Source of the DNA: Polyangiales bacterium
Lineage (GTDB): Bacteria; Myxococcota_A; Polyangia; Polyangiales; Ga0077539
Length of the DNA: 64,000 nt
Assembly: GCA_044229975.1 (NCBI GenBank)
Contig: JBGARZ010000006.1
Location: 1-64,000 of the forward strand
Direction: 5' to 3'
Part shown: positions 1 to 38,094 of the stretch, piece by piece
Position numbering within the stretch: the first letter of the stretch is position 1
Layout of the letters: the number at the start of each line of letters is the position of its first letter
Translations under genes and position numbers: made by a program
The notes under the pieces: model-generated
Databases searched by the model: none
Seen by the model: the letters and a program-made list of their open reading frames with translations, nothing else
What the model was told of the DNA's origin: nothing

Positions 1-1
1 G

Positions 2-268
2 TACTTACGACTGGATGATCCGATCTTCGATCGTCAGGTTTCGCTCCGCGACGCCTACAAGATTCTCGAAGCATTCGTCGTGCAATACAATGAGCGCGGA
101 GAGTCCTCGACCGTCAGCCTTATGTCGGATATCGGCATCCTGGCCGACGGCACGTCGAGCGATCCAGCTCAGATCCGTGACTTCGTTCGCGTTGCAGCAG
201 ATCTTCTTGGTGATGATGTGTTGCGCGCGGTCGCATCCGGCCCCAGCGCTGACCAAGGCAATGATTGA
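2..268 (+). CDS. Cassette 1 hypothetical protein (5' truncated by window edge); near-identical to cassette 2 gene
   Basis: Sequence from position 1 repeats at 571 (570-bp period); frame YLRLDDPIFDRQ...ADQGND*. Confidence 0.7.
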   Translation, partial: YLRLDDPIFDRQVSLRDAYKILEAFVVQYNERGESSTVSLMSDIGILADGTSSDPAQIRDFVRVAADLLGDDVLRAVASGPSADQGND

Positions 269-450
269 CGACACACTGAGCGGTGAACTGGCCCCGCGGA
301 AGAGCAACGGGCGGTCAACGGTCAACGGACAACGGACAACGACTGACGAAAACGAGGAACTCGGGTGACAACGGGCGGCGACAACGAGCGCGGTGGCAAC
401 AGCGACGGACTCTGGCGGACGAGCGCCCGGCGTGAGGCTGTGATCGGCAT

Positions 451-541
451 GTCTAACAAGCCGATGGTGCCGACCGCCTACACCTCACCCGCTGCCAACC
501 CGTCGTACCCGCCGCGGCGGCACATCGGCCAGCCGTTAGAC
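451..541 (+). repeat. attC site 1
   Basis: GTCTAAC-AAG-CCGATGGTGCCGACCGC ... GCGGCGGCACATCGG-CCAGCC-GTTAGAC. Confidence 0.93.
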
Positions 542-565
542 GGGTCAAATTACGGAGAGTCAGCA

Positions 566-826
566 ATGCGGTACTTACGACTGGATGATCCGATCTTCGA
601 TCGTCAGGTTTCGCTCCGCGACGCCTACAAGATTCTCGAAGCATTCGTCGTGCAATACAATGAGCGCGGAGAGTCCTCGACCGTCAGCCTGATGTCGGAT
701 ATCGGCATCCTGGCCGACGGCACGCCGAGTGATCCAGCTCAGATCCGTGACTTCGTTCGCGTTGCAGCAGATCTTCTTGGTGATGATGTGTTGCGCGCGG
801 TCGCATCTGGACCCAGCGCTGACTAA
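566..826 (+). CDS. Cassette 2 hypothetical protein (86 aa)
   Basis: ATG at 566 after GGAG; MRYLRLDDPIFDRQ...SGPSAD*. Confidence 0.75.
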   Translation: MRYLRLDDPIFDRQVSLRDAYKILEAFVVQYNERGESSTVSLMSDIGILADGTPSDPAQIRDFVRVAADLLGDDVLRAVASGPSAD

Positions 827-1020
827 GGCAATGATTGACGACACACTGAGCGGTGAATTGGCCCCGCGGAAGAGCAACGGGCGGACAACGGACAACGGAC
901 AACGGACAATGAGTGACGACAACGAGGAACTCGGGTGACAACGGGCGGCGACAACGAGCGCGGTGGCAACAGCGACGGACTCTGGCGGACGAGCGCCCGG
1001 CGTGAGGCTGGGGTCGGCAT

Positions 1021-1111
1021 GTCTAACAAGCCGATGGTGCCGACCGCCTCCACTTCACCCGCTGCCAATCCACCGTGCCCAATGCGGCGGCACATCGGCA
1101 GGCCGTTAGGC
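1021..1111 (+). repeat. attC site 2
   Basis: GTCTAAC...GTTAGGC, same internal arms, 91 bp. Confidence 0.93.
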
Positions 1112-1143
1112 GGCGCACAGGGCGGCGCTGCTGAGGTTGGTCA

Positions 1144-1497
1144 ATGCCACAGATGAAAAACTTCCGGTTCAATGGAGGTGAAGTCGTTCGACTTGTGCAG
1201 GACCATCCAGGCGATGGCTTGGAAGCCGGCGATTGTGGTCTGGTTTGGGGTGTATACGATATGGAGCCAACCCTGTACGAGGCATCGTTCTTCGACAGAA
1301 ACGGCAACAGCTCAGATATGATGTTTGTGGAGGGGGATGTTGAAGAGGCGCGCAGCAGTGAGTCGCCGTTCGCGGAGAAGATAGAAGAACTTCGTCGCCT
1401 GCTTGACGATTTCGAAGCCAAGCTGCGGAGCGATGAAGCATATGGTCGCCAGACAACACTCGAACCGGCGACCAGCACGCAGCGAAAGGGTAGATAG
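1144..1497 (+). CDS. Cassette 3 DUF4926-like protein (alternative start 1153)
   Basis: VVRLVQDHPGDGLEAGDCGLVWGVY...YEASFFDRNG resembles the DUF4926 pattern. Confidence 0.7.
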   Translation: MPQMKNFRFNGGEVVRLVQDHPGDGLEAGDCGLVWGVYDMEPTLYEASFFDRNGNSSDMMFVEGDVEEARSSESPFAEKIEELRRLLDDFEAKLRSDEAYGRQTTLEPATSTQRKGR

Positions 1498-1628
1498 CAA
1501 GCTACGGAAGATGAGGGCAACCACGTGACGGCAAAGCAGGTGATCGGCGAGACGACGAGCCGTGACGGGCTATGGCTGCCCTGCGACCCGAGTGCGTCTG
1601 CACCGATTCACGGAACTTCGTCCGGCGC

Positions 1629-1719
1629 ACCTAACAAGCCGATGGTGCCGACCGCTCCCAATCCACCCGCCGCCAACCCGCCGCGCCCAATGCGGCGGCA
1701 CATCGGCCAGCCGTTAGGA
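1629..1719 (+). repeat. attC site 3
   Basis: ACCTAAC...GTTAGGA, 91 bp. Confidence 0.92.
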
Positions 1720-1781
1720 AGCTTGGAGAGCGACGGGCGGCGCCCTGCGAAGAGCACGGATCGGGCCACGATCGGTGACCA

Positions 1782-1869
1782 GACGAGCGTCGGGCAACGG
1801 ACAGCGGGCTTCGACCAACGAGTGACGAGCGTCGGGCAACGGACAGCGGGCTTCGATCAACGAGTGACG
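1782..1869 (+). repeat. 42-bp tandem repeat (2 copies plus partial) inside cassette 4
   Basis: GACGAGCGTCGGGCAACGGACAGCGGGCTTCGAYCAACGAGT at 1782 and 1824. Confidence 0.9.
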
Positions 1870-2026
1870 GGCAGCGGGCGACGCACCGCGAAGCCGCAAG
1901 GACGCAAGGGCGCAAGGAGCAGGGCAACGTGAAAGTCAGAGGCGCGACGACGACGGAGGTGTTCGCAATGAGCGAGCGCCCTGCGTCCGGCACCGCCACG
2001 TTTGCGATGCCGTCAGCCTGGAGCAT

Positions 2027-2117
2027 TCCTAACAAGCCGATGGTGCCGACCGCTCCCAACCGGCCCGAGGAACCGTCACCTGATACGTGGCGGCGGCACA
2101 TCGGCCAGTCGTTGGGC
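2027..2117 (+). repeat. attC site 4
   Basis: TCCTAAC...GTTGGGC, 91 bp, divergent central loop. Confidence 0.92.
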
Positions 2118-2125
2118 AGGTATCC

Positions 2126-2605
2126 GTGAATCCAGCGCTTCGAAAACTTCTCGACGACTCGGACGACCCCGAAGGTTGCGAGGTGCCCGGAGAGGACTGG
2201 GCGGCCTTCCCGTACGACGCACTCGCGGCAAGCGTTGGGAAGATTCAGGACACTCTACGCAACGAACTCAATCTGCCGTTTGATCGCGATGGATATGTGC
2301 AAGACGCGTCCTTTCACGACGAACTGCGACGACTTCATCCGGACAGCTTTCGCGCGAAGGGCGTCGTAGCTCTCACTCCCGAGATCGCGGTGCGGTTTTC
2401 GAACTTCGGGCGCCTTTATACGATCTACAGCGCTGTGCCGGACTCTCTGACACATTACCCGGCGGATAGAATCAGGGCAGTGATCGAACTTCAAGGCTGG
2501 AGATATGTGCCAGTAGAAGAACTCGGCGAGATCTACGACGGCAAGAACCGTGCACTCAACAACGGAAGAATCACTTGGTGGATCCGGTTCTTCGATTACT
2601 TGTGA
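2126..2605 (+). CDS. Cassette 5 hypothetical protein
   Basis: GTG at 2126 just after attC4; globular-looking ORF ending WWIRFFDYL* before attC5. Confidence 0.75.
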   Translation: MNPALRKLLDDSDDPEGCEVPGEDWAAFPYDALAASVGKIQDTLRNELNLPFDRDGYVQDASFHDELRRLHPDSFRAKGVVALTPEIAVRFSNFGRLYTIYSAVPDSLTHYPADRIRAVIELQGWRYVPVEELGEIYDGKNRALNNGRITWWIRFFDYL

Positions 2606-2628
2606 ATGTGACGCATGCGACCTGACGT

Positions 2629-2719
2629 GCCCAACAAGCCGATGGTGCCGACCGCCCACACCTCACCCGCTCGCAACCTGTCGCGCCCGCTGCGGCGGCA
2701 CATCGGCCAGTCGTTAGGC
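2629..2719 (+). repeat. attC site 5
   Basis: GCCCAAC...GTTAGGC, 91 bp. Confidence 0.93.
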
Positions 2720-2851
2720 GCGAGAGCGTCAGCCGGACGGCCGATGGACCCGTCGTCTGATAAGTGCTAAGTGAACCGTCGTCGGCAGATGAGGCGCGCC
2801 CCAATGCATCAGACGAAAGTCTGGTCGCTTTGACCGCAGGAGGAGAGGCGA

Positions 2852-3181
2852 GTGAAGCATTGGAGTTCGGATAGCCACGATGAGCGGTTCCTACGTTCCG
2901 CAGAGGCAGCAGAGCGGTACCTATTGGATTGCAAGGCGAAGGCAACCACCCGTCAAGCCTACAAGATGCTGCACGACGAAGCTCTCGCCAGGTTCTATGT
3001 CTTTAACTACCTGCACGGAAGGCCTTTTCTTGCGAGTCGAGAAGCGCTTCTCTGCGAGCTTCGACGTCTGCTGAATGAACAGCCGACGGTTCCGTCAGAA
3101 GCGTTCGATGGCGATCGATTTCGATCGTGTCGTCAAACGTGCATTGAGGGAATTATCCGTCGGATCGAGAGCGACGAGTAG
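2852..3181 (+). CDS. Cassette 6 small hypothetical protein (109 aa)
   Basis: Strong AGGAGGAG RBS upstream of GTG. Confidence 0.7.
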   Translation: MKHWSSDSHDERFLRSAEAAERYLLDCKAKATTRQAYKMLHDEALARFYVFNYLHGRPFLASREALLCELRRLLNEQPTVPSEAFDGDRFRSCRQTCIEGIIRRIESDE

Positions 3182-3311
3182 TCCAAGGAACCTCATTGAA
3201 AGTCAGGCGTGGCACGTCAAGGCCGATGTGGCCAGCGAAAAAACCAAACTCAGACGCACGCTGCGCCAGTAAGTTAGCTTCATGCGTACGAGCGCTGAAG
3301 AGGAGCAAACC

Positions 3312-4238
3312 ATGAATCAACCGTCCTACAAATTCGCTCTCCACAATCCCTCTCGCAATTGCAACTACTATTGCGTCGATCCGTTGGGGGATGGTGGCTT
3401 TGGCGATGTTTGGGGTGGATTTTCGGACACAGGACTGCGCATCGCCGTCAAATTGTGGCGTCCTACGTCCGACCGAAATCGTGACTTGTCCGGATGGCTG
3501 AACGAACAACAGCTTTATCTTCAGTGCATATTGCATCCTTATATTATCTCCAGTTACGACCAATTCGTTTCTCCTGCCGGAGACCTCGTCATTGTAATGG
3601 AACGTGCGGAAGGTAGCCTCGAAAAGCTCGTAACGTCGCATGGCAAGCCTGATGTCCGATTCGTCATGTCAGCGGGAATTCAGATCTGTTACGCCTTGGA
3701 ACACGTTCACGCGATCAATGTAATCCATCGCGATGTTACGGCTCGCAATGTACTTTGGTTCCCGAACGGGATTGTAAAGCTGGCTGACTTTGGAATTTCA
3801 AAGGCGCTACCTACAGGCGAAGACTTCGCGCGTACGCTAATTGGGCTTCCTGGCGCAATTCCACCGGAACTTCTAGAAGCCGGGCGATCAACACCGCAGT
3901 CAGATATCTACCAACTCGGCCTTGTTCTTCTCCACTTGCTACACGGAAGTGCTCCGATTCCGCCGAACATCGAACAGGCTCTGTCGTTGAAAATGATCGC
4001 GGACGGCGTGCCGCGTCAGATGGCAGAAGCATTGATACCGCATCACGGAAAACTCGCGGAGATTGTGTCGATGATGCTCCGCCGTAGAACCGAGTGGCGA
4101 TATCAGTCTCCCGCAGATGTGCGAGCCCACTTACAGGAAGAGCTGAATCGCATACTGAGGGTCGATCAGATGATCGCACAACTGTTTTCGCAGCCACCAC
4201 GACCGTCAGTGCCACCGATCTTCAAGCCACGGAAATAA
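3312..4238 (+). CDS. Cassette 6 Hanks-type Ser/Thr protein kinase (soluble)
   Basis: LGDGGFGDVW, AVK, IHRDVTARN, KLADFG, PPE, SDIYQLG motifs; GAGGAG RBS before ATG 3312. Confidence 0.93.
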   Translation: MNQPSYKFALHNPSRNCNYYCVDPLGDGGFGDVWGGFSDTGLRIAVKLWRPTSDRNRDLSGWLNEQQLYLQCILHPYIISSYDQFVSPAGDLVIVMERAEGSLEKLVTSHGKPDVRFVMSAGIQICYALEHVHAINVIHRDVTARNVLWFPNGIVKLADFGISKALPTGEDFARTLIGLPGAIPPELLEAGRSTPQSDIYQLGLVLLHLLHGSAPIPPNIEQALSLKMIADGVPRQMAEALIPHHGKLAEIVSMMLRRRTEWRYQSPADVRAHLQEELNRILRVDQMIAQLFSQPPRPSVPPIFKPRK

Positions 4239-4272
4239 CGGCTTGCGACCATTCGCGGACTTGGAAAATTGT

Positions 4273-4363
4273 GCCTAACAAGCCGATGGTGCCGACCGCC
4301 CACACCTCGCCCGCTACCAACCCGTCGCGCTCGTTGCGGCGGCACATCGGCCAGCCGTAAACG
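4273..4363 (+). repeat. attC site 6 (degenerate R' core GTAAACG)
   Basis: GCCTAAC and conserved arms, but right core reads GTA instead of GTT. Confidence 0.85.
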
Positions 4364-4385
4364 GGCAACCAAGGGGTGACGTTCC

Positions 4386-5027
4386 GTGTACTATTCTCGG
4401 TTTCGACATCTGGCCATCGAGAGGCAGCAGAGTCCGCCAGAGGCATCCGAAATCGAAGCGATCGAGGCGCTCTTGGGCGCCTCACTGCCCGACTCGTTTC
4501 GAGCGTTTCTTGATGTTGCGAACGGTGGCAGCCTTGAGTACGTCATCGACGTGCCGTTGGGCGGTGGCGGAACGGAGTCGATGTCCTTCGGCGGACTCTT
4601 CTCGACACGAAACGGCACGTTCTGTGACGAGACCTTCCTCGGCGAAATTCGCTCCGAGCGTGAGCGCACCAAGATTCCCCTCGGAGTGCTCCCGTTTGCT
4701 CGCGATGGCGGGGATTCCATGGTCTATCTGGACCTCTCCAGTACCGGCAAAGGTCGGGTGGTTGCATTCGTTCGCGGACTTCCAGAGTGGGCCGGACTGC
4801 GAACGGATTCGGTGTTTGTTGAGTTGGCGCGGTCCTTCGACGAGTACGTGAGCAAGCTCCATCTCGATCGCGCCGACGTCATCCGAAGCCTCGCCGAAGA
4901 CGTGAAAACAGGCGACCATGTTGACGCGACCGAAGAGTGGCTCGATATCGGTATGCCCGGATGGAAAGAAGATGCGGAGTTGAGCACTGCGGTGGGGGCG
5001 GCGCGACGCCGCGTGGTACTCGGATGA
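4386..5027 (+). CDS. Cassette 7 SMI1/KNR4 (SUKH) family protein
   Basis: EIEAIEALLGASLPDSFRAFLDVANGG ... LPFARDGGDSMVYLD ... LARSFDEYV. Confidence 0.88.
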   Translation: MYYSRFRHLAIERQQSPPEASEIEAIEALLGASLPDSFRAFLDVANGGSLEYVIDVPLGGGGTESMSFGGLFSTRNGTFCDETFLGEIRSERERTKIPLGVLPFARDGGDSMVYLDLSSTGKGRVVAFVRGLPEWAGLRTDSVFVELARSFDEYVSKLHLDRADVIRSLAEDVKTGDHVDATEEWLDIGMPGWKEDAELSTAVGAARRRVVLG

Positions 5028-5076
5028 CGAGGCGGATCCAGATGAAGGGCGCGCGGCGTGGTGTGGCGCTTGGCAC

Positions 5077-5167
5077 GTCTAACAAGCCAATGGTGCCGAC
5101 GGCCCCCGCTTCACCCACCACCAACCCGCCGCGCCCGATGCGGCGGCACATCGGCCAGCCGTTAGCA
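5077..5167 (+). repeat. attC site 7 (terminal)
   Basis: GTCTAAC...GTTAGCA, 91 bp. Confidence 0.92.
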
Positions 5168-5571
5168 GGGTTGAGTGGCTGAGCTGAGCGCCGCTTCGCC
5201 CGCAGCGTATCAACCGCCAGCGTGCCGTCGCCCCTCTGGACGGGAGCTCCGGGATTCTGTAGTCGCAGCCTATGAGCGCCGCCACCGACGTGCCGAGTCC
5301 CGACGGCCTGACGATCAAGCAGGCCCGAATCCTGGAGAGCTACTACTCGCTCCGACAGCGCCTTCCCGGTCCGAGCATCGGGAGCCACGAGCTCGCGGTC
5401 GTCGAGGTCGCCGTCCGTCGCGGGGACGGGCGGCGCGGCGACGACCGGGGCATCGGCGAACGCGGTGTGCACGGCGGGCTTCAGAAGACGCAAGGATCCA
5501 CCACCCCCCGTCACCGGCTCACGAAAAAGATTGGTGAGCCGGTTTGCCAGGGTGGAGGCTCAGCACCCGTC

Positions 5572-6780
5572 ATGAACCGACACCCTCACCTCCCCCTTCT
5601 CCGGTGCGCCGCGGGCCTCCTCCTCGTGGGCCTCGCCGCGGGCTGCGGCGGCGTCAGCATCGACGCCTTCGGGCCACTGCCCGACGCCGCCACGAGCGAC
5701 GCTGCGGCCTCGACCGACGCCGCAACCTCCGTGGACACGGGCACCCGGACGGACGTCGGCGCCACGATCGACATCGGCGCCACGATCGACGTCGGCACCA
5801 CGATCGACGTCGGCGCCACGATCGACGTCGGCACTGCGATCGACCGACCGATGGGGCTCGACGTCGTGACGACGCCGGTCGACGCGGCCGGCCCCTTCTG
5901 TCCGGTCGCGCTCTGCGTCACCGGCACGCGTTGCTGTGAGGCGCTGCGCCGGTGCATGCCCGCGGGCGTGCTCTGTCCCGACGAGGCGCCCGACGCGGGC
6001 CCTGCGACCTGCACCGCCAACGATCAATGCCGCGCCGGCGCGTGGTGCCAGGGAAGCGGCTGCGGCACCCCGGGCGTCTGCACCCCGCTCGGCGACATCT
6101 GCCCGTCCACCTACGACCCCGTCTGCGGCTGCGACCGGCGCACCTACCCCAACGAGTGCCTCGCCAACGTCACCGGCGTTCGCGTCGCCACGCGCGGCGT
6201 CTGCCCCGGAACCGACGCGGGCACCGCCGACGCGGGCCCTGCCACCTGCCGCACCAACGCCGACTGCGCGACCAACCGCTACTGCGCGGGCGACGGCTGC
6301 GGCGCCGCGGGCACCTGCGCGGTGCGCCCCGAGGGGTGCACGGCGGAGTACAACCCGGTGTGCGGCTGCGACGGGCGCACCTACGGCAACGCGTGTGGCG
6401 CAGCGAGCGCGGGCGTTCGGGTGGCGACGCGCGGGGCGTGCGTTGTCGACGCGGGCGTGACCGACGCGGGCGCCGCGGCGTGCGTCACGGCCTCCGACTG
6501 CCGCGCGGGCAACGAGTGCGTGTACCCGTCCACCGCGTGCGCCCGATCGGGTGTGTGCACCTCGGCGATCGCGTGCTTCGTCGCGCTGCCGTTCTGCTCG
6601 TGCACCGGCGAGACGTACCGCGCGTGCCGCCCCGACCGGCCGACGAGCGCCAGCGGTGAGTGCGCGGCGACGCCCGATGCGGGGACGTCGTTCTGCGCGA
6701 CGGCGCGCTGCACGGCGACGACGTTCTGCTGCGAGTCCGCGCGGGCGTGCATCCCGCTCGGAACGACCTGCCCGCGCTGA
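5572..6780 (+). CDS. Cys-rich lipoprotein with Kazal-like domains
   Basis: Lipobox LAAGC; YDPVCGCDRRTYPNEC and YNPVCGCDGRTYGNAC; D(V/I)G(A/T)TI repeats. Confidence 0.85.
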   Translation: MNRHPHLPLLRCAAGLLLVGLAAGCGGVSIDAFGPLPDAATSDAAASTDAATSVDTGTRTDVGATIDIGATIDVGTTIDVGATIDVGTAIDRPMGLDVVTTPVDAAGPFCPVALCVTGTRCCEALRRCMPAGVLCPDEAPDAGPATCTANDQCRAGAWCQGSGCGTPGVCTPLGDICPSTYDPVCGCDRRTYPNECLANVTGVRVATRGVCPGTDAGTADAGPATCRTNADCATNRYCAGDGCGAAGTCAVRPEGCTAEYNPVCGCDGRTYGNACGAASAGVRVATRGACVVDAGVTDAGAAACVTASDCRAGNECVYPSTACARSGVCTSAIACFVALPFCSCTGETYRACRPDRPTSASGECAATPDAGTSFCATARCTATTFCCESARACIPLGTTCPR

Positions 6781-35100: not shown

Positions 35101-38094
35101 ATGAGATCACGTCACGTCTGGATTGTTCTGTCGGCCACGCTCGTCGCCATCGCGGGCTGTGATGGTCGAGCGTTGCTCGGTCCACCGACGGTGTCCGGTG
35201 ACGCGGCGGCTGACGTCACCACGCTCACCGACCTTCCGGCCCCCGACGGCGGCAACGACGTCACCACGCCGACCGACGTCCAGCGCACCGACGTCGCCAC
35301 CGACAGCGGCACGGATGGCGGCCTCGTGTGCGGCGCGGGGGAGACCCGCTGCGGCAGCGCGTGCGTCGACGTCGCCAGCGACCCCGCCAACTGCGGCGCG
35401 TGCGCCAACGCCTGTACCGCGGGTCAGGTGTGCAACGCCGGGGCGTGCGCGACGACCTGCGGCGCGGGCCTGAGCGCGTGCAGCGGCGCGTGCGTCGACC
35501 TCGGGTCGAGCAACGACCACTGCGGCGCGTGCGGCACCGCCTGCGCGGGCGGGACGAGCTGTAGCGCGGGCGTCTGCGTGTGCCCGGCGGGGACCACCCG
35601 CTGCGGCAGCGCGTGCGTCGACCTCGCCAGCGACCCGACCCACTGCGGCGCCTGCGCGACCGCGTGCACCGCGGGCCAGGTGTGCTCCTCGGGCGCGTGC
35701 GGCGCGACCTGCGCGACGGGCCTCACGGCGTGCAGCGGCGCGTGCGTCGACACCCGCAGCGACTCGTCGCACTGCGGCGGCTGCGGCGTGACCTGCACCG
35801 GCGGAACGAGCTGCGTCGGGGGTGGATGCGCGTGCCCGGCGGGGACGACCCGCTGCGGCGATCGCTGCGTCGACCTCACCTCCAGCGGCACCGACTGCGG
35901 CGCGTGCGGGACGGCCTGCGCGACGGCCCAGGTGTGCGCCGCGGGCGTGTGCGCGACGACCTGCCCGGCCGGGCGCCTCGCCTGCGGCCGCGACTGCATC
36001 GACGTGGGCTCCGACGCCGCCAACTGCGGCGCGTGCGGGGTGCGCTGCGCCGGCGGATCGACCTGCGTCGCGGGCACCTGCGCCTGCCCGACGGGCCAGA
36101 CGCTGTGCTCGGGCGTGTGCGTCGACCTGCGCACCGACCCCGCCCACTGCGGCGCGTGCGGGACGACCTGCGCGGCGGGCCAGGCCTGCGGCGCGGGCAT
36201 GTGCGGATCGACCTGCGCGGCGGGCACCACGGCGTGCGCGGGCTCGTGCGTCGACACGCGCACCGACGCGGCCAACTGCGGCGGTTGTGGCGTCGCGTGC
36301 ACCGGCGGGACGGCCTGTGTGGCAGGCACCTGCGGCTGCCCGATGGGGCAGATGGCGTGCGGCGGGATGTGCGTCGACACGCGCGCCAGCAACATCCACT
36401 GCGGCTCGTGCGGCAACCGCTGCGCGCCGGGGACGTTCTGCGCCAACGGCGGGTGCGCGTGCAACGAGGGGACGACCAACTGCGCGGGCATCTGCTCCGA
36501 CCTGCGGACCAACCCCGCCCACTGCGGAGCGTGCGGCAACGCGTGCGCCGCGGGGCAGGCGTGCAGCGGCGGCGCGTGCACTGCGACCTGCTCGACCGGG
36601 CTCACCCGCTGCGGCGGCGCCTGCGTCGACACGCAGAGCGACCGCGCCAACTGCGGCGCCTGCGGGACGGCCTGCACCGGCGGAACGGTGTGCAGCCTCG
36701 GGGCGTGCGTGTGTGATCCGGGGCGCACCAACTGCGGCGGCACCTGCGTCGATGCGCAGAGCGATCCGGCCAACTGCGGCGCCTGCGGGCGCGCGTGCGC
36801 GGCGGGCCAGACCTGCTCGGCGGGCGCCTGCGCGGCGGCCTGCGCGGTGGGCCTCACCAACTGCGCGGGCGCCTGCGTCGACCTGTCGAGCAACGGAACG
36901 AGCTGCGGGATGTGCGGTCGCACCTGCACCGGCGGCACCCGCTGCGTGACCGGCGCGTGCCAGTGTCCGGCGGGCCAGAGCAACTGCGGCGGGACGTGCG
37001 TGAGCCAGCAGAGCGATCCGGCCAACTGCGGCGGCTGCGGAACGCGCTGCGGCGCCGGGCGGGTGTGCTCCTTCGGGGTGTGCCTGATGGGCTGCGTTCC
37101 GGGGCAGACCCAGTGCGGCGGCGGGTGCTTCTTCACGCAGGTCGACGAGCGCAACTGCGGCGGCTGCGGCATCGCCTGCAACGCGGGTCAGACCTGCATC
37201 AACAGCCGGTGCCAGTGCCCGGCGGGCCAGACCCTCTGCGGCGGGGTGTGCGTCGACACGCGCACCAACAGCGCCAACTGCGGCGCGTGCGGGACCGCCT
37301 GCATGACCAACCAGCTCTGCTCGGGCGGCGTCTGCGGCGTGACGTGTCCGACGGGCAGCACGGCCTGCGGCGGCGCCTGCGTCGACACCCGCTCCAACGA
37401 CCGCAACTGCGGCGGCTGCGGCGTCGTCTGCACCGGCGGGTCGGCCTGCACCGCGGGCGCCTGCGCGTGCCCGGCGGGCAGCGCCCTGTGCAGCGGCCGC
37501 TGCGTCAACCTCCGCACCGACGCGCTCAACTGCGGCGCGTGCGGGACGGCGTGCACCGGCGGCGCGACCTGCACCGCGGGCGTGTGCGCGTGCCCGACGG
37601 GGCAGACCCGCTGCGGCGCCACCTGCGTCAACACGCAGACCAGCAACGCCAACTGCGGCGCTTGTGGGACGGCCTGCCCGGCCGGCCAGGCGTGCACCGC
37701 CGGGGCCTGCGTGGCGGCCTGCCCGATGGGCCAGACCCGCTGCGGAACCACCTGCGTCAACACCGGCACCGACGAGGCCAACTGCGGCGCGTGCGGCAGC
37801 ACCTGCGCGGGCACCTGCATGGGCGGTCGCTGCACGTGTCCCCTCGGCGAGCAGCTCTGCGGCGGTCGCTGCGTGGGCGTCATCGACGACCCGACCAACT
37901 GCGGGATGTGCGGTCGCGCGTGCCCGACGGGGCAGGCGTGCGTGGCCGGCTTCTGCACGGCGCGCTGCTTCATCCCGGGGCAGACGCTCTGCAACTCGAT
38001 GTGCGTCAACACGCAGGTCGACGCGGCCAACTGCGGGACGTGCAGCAACCGCTGCCCGGGCACCCAGATCTGCCGCGGGGGGATGTGCCGATGA
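35101..38094 (+). CDS. Large Cys-rich repeat lipoprotein (22 Stig1/MXAN_6577-like repeats)
   Basis: Lipobox IAGC; 22 copies of C-x(2)-...CVD-x5-(N/H)CGxCGxxC. Confidence 0.92.
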   Translation: MRSRHVWIVLSATLVAIAGCDGRALLGPPTVSGDAAADVTTLTDLPAPDGGNDVTTPTDVQRTDVATDSGTDGGLVCGAGETRCGSACVDVASDPANCGACANACTAGQVCNAGACATTCGAGLSACSGACVDLGSSNDHCGACGTACAGGTSCSAGVCVCPAGTTRCGSACVDLASDPTHCGACATACTAGQVCSSGACGATCATGLTACSGACVDTRSDSSHCGGCGVTCTGGTSCVGGGCACPAGTTRCGDRCVDLTSSGTDCGACGTACATAQVCAAGVCATTCPAGRLACGRDCIDVGSDAANCGACGVRCAGGSTCVAGTCACPTGQTLCSGVCVDLRTDPAHCGACGTTCAAGQACGAGMCGSTCAAGTTACAGSCVDTRTDAANCGGCGVACTGGTACVAGTCGCPMGQMACGGMCVDTRASNIHCGSCGNRCAPGTFCANGGCACNEGTTNCAGICSDLRTNPAHCGACGNACAAGQACSGGACTATCSTGLTRCGGACVDTQSDRANCGACGTACTGGTVCSLGACVCDPGRTNCGGTCVDAQSDPANCGACGRACAAGQTCSAGACAAACAVGLTNCAGACVDLSSNGTSCGMCGRTCTGGTRCVTGACQCPAGQSNCGGTCVSQQSDPANCGGCGTRCGAGRVCSFGVCLMGCVPGQTQCGGGCFFTQVDERNCGGCGIACNAGQTCINSRCQCPAGQTLCGGVCVDTRTNSANCGACGTACMTNQLCSGGVCGVTCPTGSTACGGACVDTRSNDRNCGGCGVVCTGGSACTAGACACPAGSALCSGRCVNLRTDALNCGACGTACTGGATCTAGVCACPTGQTRCGATCVNTQTSNANCGACGTACPAGQACTAGACVAACPMGQTRCGTTCVNTGTDEANCGACGSTCAGTCMGGRCTCPLGEQLCGGRCVGVIDDPTNCGMCGRACPTGQACVAGFCTARCFIPGQTLCNSMCVNTQVDAANCGTCSNRCPGTQICRGGMCR

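Follow-up and report, generated by a model that had tools for sequence, protein, structure and literature searches.

Mini-ORFs in attC sites are already known in principle. A short ORF in attC has been described as relieving the block caused by the attC hairpin (Jacquier et al., 2009, as told in PMC8876359). According to the available text of PMC11511950, leaving a 3′ UTR untranslated makes downstream expression 4-fold lower and translating through it restores expression 2-fold; the same text reports, against a relay reading, that deletion of attC from class 1 cassettes rarely alters downstream expression. At issue are the expression of promoterless cassettes far from the integron promoter and the purpose of gene-less cassettes.

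Here, we describe an attC family whose sites hold one reading frame open and whose attI sites carry an ATG joining the same frame; judged from sequence, ORFs in this frame (relay ORFs) probably carry ribosomes to the next gene. The family displays depletion of stops in this frame, phased leader and trailer lengths, avoidance of fusions and return to the frame in gene-less cassettes. The window, which is the whole 64,000-nucleotide stretch analysed from a Polyangiales bacterium contig, contains an array with these features (all on the + strand):

2..268, +, cassette 1 gene, 3′ part, truncated at the contig start; duplicates the cassette 2 gene
261..368, +, middle ORF in a T-poor trailer, without SD; its own stop overlaps GTG 365
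365..826, +, relay ORF, SD −5.9, running through attC1 in frame 0 into an in-frame fusion with the cassette 2 gene
451..541, +, attC1, crossover after 535
566..826, +, cassette 2 gene, 86 aa, own SD (−6.6)
831..938, +, middle ORF, duplicate of 261-368, without SD; its own stop overlaps GTG 935
935..1156, +, relay ORF, SD −5.9, crossing attC2; its stop overlaps the second ATG (1153) of the cassette 3 gene
1021..1111, +, attC2, crossover after 1105
1144..1497, +, cassette 3 gene, DUF4926-like (E 2.6e-6, slightly short of the Pfam cut-off)
1525..1932, +, relay ORF, SD −6.1, crossing attC3 into a gene-less cassette; GTGA end on the next relay start
1629..1719, +, attC3, crossover after 1713
1714..2111, +, cassette 4, gene-less relay cassette, T-poor (11% T); crossover-to-AAC length 317 nt (2 mod 3), with a single GTGA step
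1929..2129, +, relay ORF, SD −6.3, crossing attC4; its stop overlaps GTG 2126
2027..2117, +, attC4, crossover after 2111
2126..2605, +, cassette 5 gene, 159 aa, hypothetical
2629..2719, +, attC5
2852..3181, +, first gene of cassette 6, 109 aa, with a strong SD of its own (−10.0)
3312..4238, +, second gene of cassette 6, with a Ser/Thr protein kinase domain
4273..4363, +, attC6, core altered to G↓TAA (arrow, crossover)
4386..5027, +, cassette 7 gene, SMI1/KNR4 family
5024..5182, +, relay ORF beginning on the SMI1 stop (ATGA) and crossing attC7 at the array end; second ATG (5042) has SD −5.9
5077..5167, +, attC7, last site; fold no better than shuffles

Frame 0 denotes the NKPMV reading frame through attC, and frames 1 and 2 the other two. 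The family-wide set holds 275 unique attC sites of one family; stop gains were counted along a spanning tree of 232 sites, exits were analysed in 117 dereplicated cassette heads and entries in 107 tails. Genes were called with our own composition-based caller with an SD bonus, which is not a standard caller; it replaced longest-ORF calling, which had put 44 of 139 calls on the antisense strand. The assembly yielded no 16S 3′ end, so SD scores refer to a generic anti-SD.

The seven attC sites lie where the initial annotation had placed them, and the ORFs that it named (261-368, 365-826, 831-938, 935-1156, 1525-1932, 1929-2129 and 5024-5182) have the claimed ends and no internal stops. The stop-start overlaps that it reported are all present (GTGA at 365, 935, 1929 and 2126; ATGA at 1153 and 5024), and the ORF starting on the GTGA at 365 does run through attC1 in frame into the cassette 2 gene, ending at 826; such fusion to the next gene is rare in the family. 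Its start for cassette 3, ATG 1153, is sound as an ATGA overlap; as the gene start, ATG 1144 is likelier (anti-SD duplex, −6.3 vs −2.2 kcal/mol), which would put the relay stop 10 nt into the gene. Cassettes 1 and 2 arose as, or form, a tandem duplication of 570 bp (25 differences in 535 nt), so the chains from 261 and 831 count as one observation. Relative to its duplicate, the cassette 1 gene has TAA changed to CAA at 254, which shifted its end to 268; the cassette 2 product has no matches in Pfam or NCBIfam. Because the relay starts at 365, 935, 1525 and 1929 each have an SD-like site of their own, the upstream links at 261 and 831 may be dispensable. The GTGA overlap of cassette 5 is also present in two other copies of that cassette. 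At attC5, the frame-0 ORF (2615-2770) has neither SD nor hand-off, its stop at 2770 being far short of the gene at 2852, and junctions 5 and 6 of the array show no hand-off to the next gene. By itself, the window is little proof of the frame claim.

The sites measure 83 nt from AAC to GTT in 7/7 cases, with core boxes RYYYAAC ... GTTRRRY in which AAC and GTT are found at six of the seven (attC6 has GTA) and the flanks are near-consensus. Depending on position, 131-140 of 147 closed cassettes show pairing of the R″ box with the head of the same cassette. Bottom-strand folding agrees with the attC pattern, a hairpin with extrahelical bases, an unpaired central spacer and a variable terminal loop: a full hairpin is predicted at four sites, an inner stem only at two and none at attC7, the end of the array (z −3.9 to 0). 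An IntI above the TIGR02249 cut-off heads an array of the same attC type, with attI, on C4, another contig of the same genome. The window contig has seven attC and no intI over the cut-off, the array itself being cut by the contig start. The C19 recombinase was rejected as IntI, as it falls below the IntI cut-off and adjoins a transposase-like ORF. The same cassettes recur in different arrays; a search of viral contigs gave no match.

As had been claimed, the NKPMV frame has no stop ahead of the crossover at any of the seven window sites. Inside the sites the other frames are also open (+1 stop-free in 7/7, +2 in 6/7), and are closed mostly by the core boxes (TAG of GTTAG at 5/7 sites, TAA of TAAC at 6/7). 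A constant frame at the G↓TT crossover was also proposed; at attC6, frame 0 terminates at the crossover because the core is G↓TAA, and this site is probably a poor recombination substrate. Across the family, stops inside attC occur in 8, 20 and 54 of the 275 sites in frames 0, 1 and 2, respectively. Along the spanning tree, 5 frame-0 stop gains are observed against 18.7 expected (P 2e-4), compared with 30 against 29 in frame 2; frame-1 gains are mildly depleted as well (11 vs 19.8, P 0.024), which counts against a relay reading. None of 2,488 matched sense-triplet trios has a ratio as low as the 0.27 of frame 0, and one central-spacer column supplies a third of the frame-0 expectation. Metagenome-only sites yield merely 4 frame-0 gains against 9.2 expected (P 0.047). 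Length variants shift the frame in 24 of 40 cases; 10 of the 16 in-frame variants share one length (86 nt) and are closely alike.

A functional product, be it the peptide encoded across attC or an ORF antisense to the gene-less cassette, might be suggested by the motif, which is constant in translation, and by antisense ORF 1631-2101, which spans cassette 4. This is highly improbable: selection on the peptide was rejected because the loop lacks a third-position excess (entropy 1.18/1.05/1.01) and the synonymous fraction is 0.28 vs 0.33 under the null, and a consistent antisense ORF was rejected because no bottom-strand frame is open throughout the gene-less family. The relay peptides themselves are likely irrelevant.

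On the entry side, an open frame-0 start near the previous stop is found in 41 of the 107 tails vs 17 and 14 for the other frames, and a start tightly on that stop in 21 vs 9 and 6. Trailer stops are distributed 27/59/40 among the frames (p 0.002); held-out counts are 6/12/7 (p 0.29, not significant). Of 53 long trailers, 14 have an SD-led open start in frame 0 vs 3 and 4 in the other frames. Enrichment of ATG/GTG six bases ahead of AAC was set aside as evidence, as base pairing explains part of it. Of 12 intI-anchored attI sites (two of 14 intI loci, one interrupted and one class 1-like, were excluded), 11 end in a frame-0 ATG at the crossover, with an SD of −4 or better in just 3/12; this ATG may be an integrase-binding preference.

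On the exit side, the first stop past the crossover overlaps ATG/GTG about half the time whichever frame is read (84/169, 71/158 and 74/162 heads in frames 0, 1 and 2), which bears out the earlier caveat that RTGA overlaps arise readily by chance. In the family-wide tabulation of frames and stops at attC junctions, as proposed in the initial annotation, stop depletion and phasing are found, and overlap frequency counted irrespective of genes is at chance. The frame-0 ORF ends −12 to +13 nt from the gene start in 52/117 heads vs 22 and 24 for the other frames (McNemar p 2e-5 and 2e-4), and exact stop-start overlap with the next gene occurs in 22 vs 7 and 13. Fusion to that gene is avoided in frame 0 (5/26 vs 53/91, p 7e-4), also for Pfam-matched genes (1/8 vs 9/14 and 9/12). 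Gene-start phase is 26/41/50 (p 0.023); this bias is modest, since it is visible only at 117 heads and the first 77 were uniform (23/25/29, p 0.70). Metagenome-only clusters agree (phase 3/12/16; tight or near ends in 17 vs 3 and 8 of 31), as do 64 genes validated either through Pfam or because they fill their cassette (near ends 29/13/14). Exact overlap shows no frame bias among the 34 genes with a Pfam match (5/4/4) or among 19 own-genome heads (1/1/3), and the length of all closed cassettes has no bias mod 3 (36/28/31). In 42/117 heads the frame-0 ORF terminates >12 nt ahead of the next gene.

Open frames and overlaps might be a by-product of fixed-length conserved attC, a C-rich top strand, T-poor repeats and frequent GTGA, arising without translational selection. 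The RTGA overlap rate of about 50% in every frame fits this, as do an attC strand skew accounted for by recombination needs (as described in the text available of PMC5027507), a T at −5 that pairing to the head of the same cassette accounts for (89 vs 60 shuffled) and the weakening of effects in long genes with high scores (44 heads: near 13/7/11, tight 4/5/5, phase 15/15/14). It predicts neither the frame-specific phasing of non-homologous leaders and trailers nor a fusion avoidance limited to frame 0, and we consider it unlikely. Alternatively, the frame might be translated while selection merely ends the ORF early or avoids N-terminal fusions, with no downstream gain. Fusion avoidance is indeed the most robust exit signal, frame 0 stops earlier past the crossover (median 54 vs 100 and 90 nt) and most downstream genes come with an SD of their own; such damage limitation would, however, favour stops in attC and trailers, where they are depleted, and leaves the SD-led starts feeding the frame unexplained, which makes it quite unlikely. 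A relay of ribosomes to the next gene is the preferred reading.

The relay pattern is most complete in gene-less cassettes, a set defined only after having been seen, in which 19 of 20 T-poor copies return to frame 0, along with 4/4 later found behind attI. Thus, 23/24 copies of the cassette 4 family (216-377 nt) bring the frame back via 0, 1 or 2 stop-start overlaps, the step number matching length mod 3, and three restore it by a second overlap after a length shift. Return rates expected under the nulls are 0.38 for random indels, 0.43 for heptamer slippage and 0.14 for shuffling (P ~0.004-0.008 with kinship allowed for). The last relay start has an SD in 12/18 gene-less cassettes, compared with 12/69 other ATG/GTG. 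Among other dereplicated closed cassettes, a complete tight-overlap chain occurs in 7/92 vs 8 and 10 on entry in the other frames. The T-poor heptamer repeats also occur outside arrays in relatives, as a by-product would allow; restoration in 23/24 copies, three by a second overlap, is not predicted by it. These cassettes could instead be promoters, spacers or RNAs as in Vibrio, with an inherited, incidental chain: Vibrio gene-less cassettes often bear promoters (10.1101/2023.11.21.568050, in the text available), and four distinct copies here directly adjoin attI. The search for sigma-70-like consensus promoters gave 0 in window positions 1-5400 vs 1.4 in shuffles, Rfam gave no credible match and the chain outlasts 15 spanning-tree edges with indels, which makes this very unlikely. 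Gene-less cassette heads are also found on 11-17 of 100 gene cassettes, so that gene-less cassettes may be scaffolds for new cassettes; insertion of genes into relay scaffolds was rejected, head and tail occurring together in 1/100 (not significant).

In the relay reading, ribosomes would come in at an SD-led GTG/ATG of the trailer or by re-initiation on the previous stop codon. Translation of short relay ORFs through each attC would then unfold the hairpin predicted for the RNA (about −31 to −42 kcal/mol), whose loop is 51% C. Termination at or near the next gene start would favour initiation there, and the message would stay ribosome-covered whatever the cassette order, with less polarity from Rho termination or decay; Rho is present. 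The initial annotation envisaged coupling through any cassette order, as a universal plug. The counts across the family favour a selected frame that does not depend on order and is common to attC and attI; 'universal' is too strong, as the relay is partial, involving ~20-45% of junctions per side and being nearly complete only in gene-less cassettes. A fuller plug-in standard is a tentative possibility: attI would give the ATG, every attC would pass ribosomes in one frame, leaders would receive them, and gene-less cassettes would exist solely as ribosome carriers, mending length shifts by an added or dropped stop-start step. With one frame in attI and attC, expression would depend only in part on the order of the cassettes, a second code would be laid on a recombination site thought to be constrained chiefly by DNA structure, and gene-less cassettes would gain a non-promoter function.

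Like the CALIN and sedentary chromosomal integron arrays described in the text available of PMC4889954, the window array is a homogeneous attC cluster with diverse, mostly unknown genes. CALIN have, by definition, two or more attC and no intI nearby; the window array starts at the contig end, beyond which a neighbouring intI may lie. Vibrionaceae superintegron gene-less cassettes, as described in 10.1101/2023.11.21.568050, likewise have no gene and may tune downstream expression; those are described as acting as promoters, whereas the present ones are T-poor, keep a stop-start chain by which the frame is restored and, in the window copy, lack any sigma-70-like site. ORF-11, ORF-17 and ORF-18 of attI1 (as told in PMC8876359) similarly place a non-functional peptide over the crossover to couple translation to the cassette. 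ORF-11 begins upstream, has an SD of its own and usually terminates at the core-site TAG (frame 1 here); the present attI do not fit that pattern, as their ATG ends on the crossover G and reads frame 0, as the attC ORFs do, mostly without a good SD. The attC short ORF of Jacquier et al. (as told in PMC8876359) is closest, in that an attC-crossing ORF is proposed to bring ribosomes on by termination-reinitiation; in the present family, too, an open ORF spans attC between the previous stop and the next start, with partial penetrance. That ORF is described for individual class 1 cassettes, whereas here starts usually lie upstream in the trailer and one frame is kept in 275 chromosomal-family sites, and signs of selection are seen in the sites as well as in leaders and trailers.

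Judged from sequence comparison, the shared reading frame through attC is a real feature with signs of selection across the family, yet it is partial, and the universal translational plug proposed in the initial annotation is not sustained, since the relay of short ORFs crossing attC is itself partial. The ORF coordinates and start/stop overlaps on which that proposal rested were all correct on recheck. By itself, however, the window is weak evidence for a shared frame. Its cassettes 1 and 2 duplicate each other in tandem, and frames 1 and 2 (relative to frame 0, the NKPMV frame, in which the crossover lies on a codon boundary) are likewise open within most window attC, being closed mostly by the core boxes. 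There is no hand-off at attC5 or attC6, attC7 is the array end, and for cassette 3 position 1144 is a better start than 1153. Shine–Dalgarno (SD) strength at starts 365, 935, 1525, 1929 and 5042 resembles that of called gene starts (about -6 kcal/mol); no SD was found at 261, 831 or 2615.

The window is the beginning of contig C23 of a 10 Mb assembly of about 71% GC, and its seven attC, all of one type, lie within the initial 5.2 kb. Genome-wide, 39 attC of this type are spread over several arrays; contig C4 encodes an integron integrase scoring above the TIGR02249 cut-off, and a rho gene was found. In an order sample, the motif occurred in 21 of 30 same-family genomes and 1 of 270 others; motif-carrying records are labelled mostly Polyangiales, Myxococcales or Myxococcota. 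On contig C19 (about 433300-436000), a XerD-like recombinase and a transposase-like ORF immediately precede an array whose first cassette is a copy of window cassette 2. A cassette in a relative (L228:13196-13726) matches the Arr rifampin ADP-ribosyltransferase family. The predicted fold of attC1 (451-541), like that of every attC of the family, has a strongly asymmetric central spacer (2 unpaired bases versus 5 opposite), which on the L'-R' side looks longer than the 5-nt spacer given for VCR (PMC2727003). One attC (L226) is 210 nt, with a palindromic insert within the loop. Immediately past the window's array end lies a Cys-rich protein with Kazal-type domains (5272-6780), and 35325-38064 holds a long array of Cys-rich coding repeats of 123 or 129 nt each.

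Sites were collected from the genome itself, 100 genome loci, 119 metagenome loci and regions of relatives, yielding 452 junction records and 275 unique attC, 232 of which are 83 nt. Among the 275, stops occur in 8, 20 and 54 sites (frames 0, 1 and 2). With the 232 sites placed on a spanning tree, observed stop gains were 5, 11 and 30 versus 18.7, 19.8 and 29 expected, and the frame-0 ratio of observed to expected was below that of every one of 2,488 matched sense-triplet trios. A single spacer column contributes a third of the frame-0 expectation, and depletion was weaker in metagenome-only sites (4 versus 9.2). The attC peptide shows no conservation at the protein level, and changes in attC length take no account of the frame, with 24 variants shifting it and 16 preserving it.

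Redundancy among leaders (after the crossover) and trailers (before attC) was removed by BLAST clustering. Gene calls relied on a home-made score of amino-acid composition that adds a bonus for an SD and is blind to crossover frame; clusters with a usable gene (117 of 164 heads, 125 of 164 tails) were kept and the rest dropped. On the exit side, next-gene starts fall 26/41/50 in the three phases relative to the crossover, and ORFs end within -12 to +13 nt of the gene start in 52 of 117 heads in frame 0 versus 22 and 24 in the others (precisely at the start in 22, 7 and 13). Fusion to the next gene is found in 5 of 26 possible frame-0 cases versus 53 of 91 in other frames. Shuffling leaders at fixed length retains 46 near ends, whereas randomising length modulo 3 lowers them to 29, indicating that what counts is the length of the leader. 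The pattern recurs in metagenome-only clusters and in 64 genes validated by Pfam or cassette-filling (near ends 29/13/14). The signal is carried by short leaders and short genes and is flat in 44 high-scoring genes; exact overlap is flat among Pfam-matched genes and in the genome itself, and 42 of 117 frame-0 ORFs terminate well ahead of the next gene. The caveat in the initial annotation that RTGA overlaps arise by chance was borne out: overlap of the first post-crossover stop with ATG or GTG is similar in all frames (84/169, 71/158 and 74/162 heads).

On the entry side, previous-gene stops show phases of 26/51/34 with core-box stops excluded (P = 0.012), and stops within trailers number 27/59/40. 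Open starts close to the previous stop are found in 41, 17 and 14 of 107 trailers (frames 0, 1 and 2), with exact overlap in 21, 9 and 6; shuffles gave 34 and 28 near and 17 and 11 exact. SD-led open starts in 53 long trailers number 14, 3 and 4. Held-out trailer counts run in the same direction but are not significant.

Window cassette 4, which lacks a gene, is a member of a T-poor family, defined after the cassettes were seen as closed cassettes of <420 nt and <14.5% T (n = 20). In 19 of these 20, frame 0 entered at the crossover is handed on through an unbroken chain of stop-start overlaps and reaches the next attC in frame 0 again, with steps matching length: none at 0 mod 3 (1 cassette), one at 2 mod 3 (15) and two at 1 mod 3 (3/3); the sole failure is 2 mod 3. 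Overlaps lie at positions 99 to 290, and TAATG replaces GTGA in one copy. When the 19 are entered in frame 1, one comes back to that frame; when they are entered in frame 2, none does. Null expectations for the return to frame 0 are 0.38 (random indel), 0.43 (heptamer slippage) and 0.14 (shuffle); restricted to 15 tree edges with indels, P is 0.004-0.008. Four further distinct copies, found later immediately after attI-like sites, all obey the rule. SD motifs precede 12 of 18 last relay starts versus 12 of 69 other ATG/GTG, and no antisense frame is consistently open across the family. T-poor repeats are present outside arrays too, so the evidence is the restored frame, not composition; a complete tight chain is rare in other cassettes (7/92).

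Outside arrays, T-poor heptamer tracts and palindromic repeats are scattered in L260, L261, L274, L275, L281, L283 and L286 (30 matches apiece in two relatives), with a longer repeated element common to L274, L281 and L286. Relay-type sequence is often first behind attI (L315:623, L238, L045/L258, L176, L117 and C4 about 247880), which suggests frequent recent insertion or an array-head role. Among 100 dereplicated gene cassettes, 11-17 have a relay-type head and 1-3, including window cassette 3, a relay-type tail, with both in one; a link to cassette formation is possible, but not significant.

Of 14 loci read upstream of intI, 12 had a usable attI site. An ATG at the crossover terminates 11 of the 12, although upstream sequence differs, and the called crossover agrees with the first attC core box in 4 of the 5 loci having the first attC in view. 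The leader would therefore be read in the same frame after attI as after attC. SD support for this ATG is weak (3/12), and it may reflect an integrase-binding preference for these bases. In a relative (L035, homologue of window 254-270), an attI-like ATG/GTT junction follows the cassette 2 gene, in place of the ATG of window ORFs 261 and 831; the trailer could be a cassette that was joined on at a secondary site. At least two direct repeats resembling core sites lie upstream of attI in L001, L297-L303 and L311 (about ten copies in L302). In one family member (L304), what matches intI is the remnant of a class 1-like integron, which may have been acquired or may be a contaminant from binning.

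What the sequences establish as patterns is a frame bias, phasing, the avoidance of fusions, chains that restore the frame, and the attI ATG. Mechanistically, ribosomes would translate the relay ORFs and thereby unfold the attC RNA hairpin (predicted -31 to -42 kcal/mol). Rho loading occurs on untranslated C-rich RNA, and the attC loop is 51% C; a translated relay might shield the message from Rho or decay and might aid initiation at the downstream gene. Since an SD of its own is present at most next genes, obligatory coupling is less likely than relief of polarity.

Full-text searches, mainly of non-subscription papers and judged by title or abstract start, found no description of a family-wide attC/attI frame or of frame-restoring gene-less cassettes. 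Within that scope, neither relay cassettes lacking a gene nor an attI ATG in the shared frame was found described. Mini-ORF coupling at attC and attI is already known (PMC8876359), and the shared frame is a variant of it.
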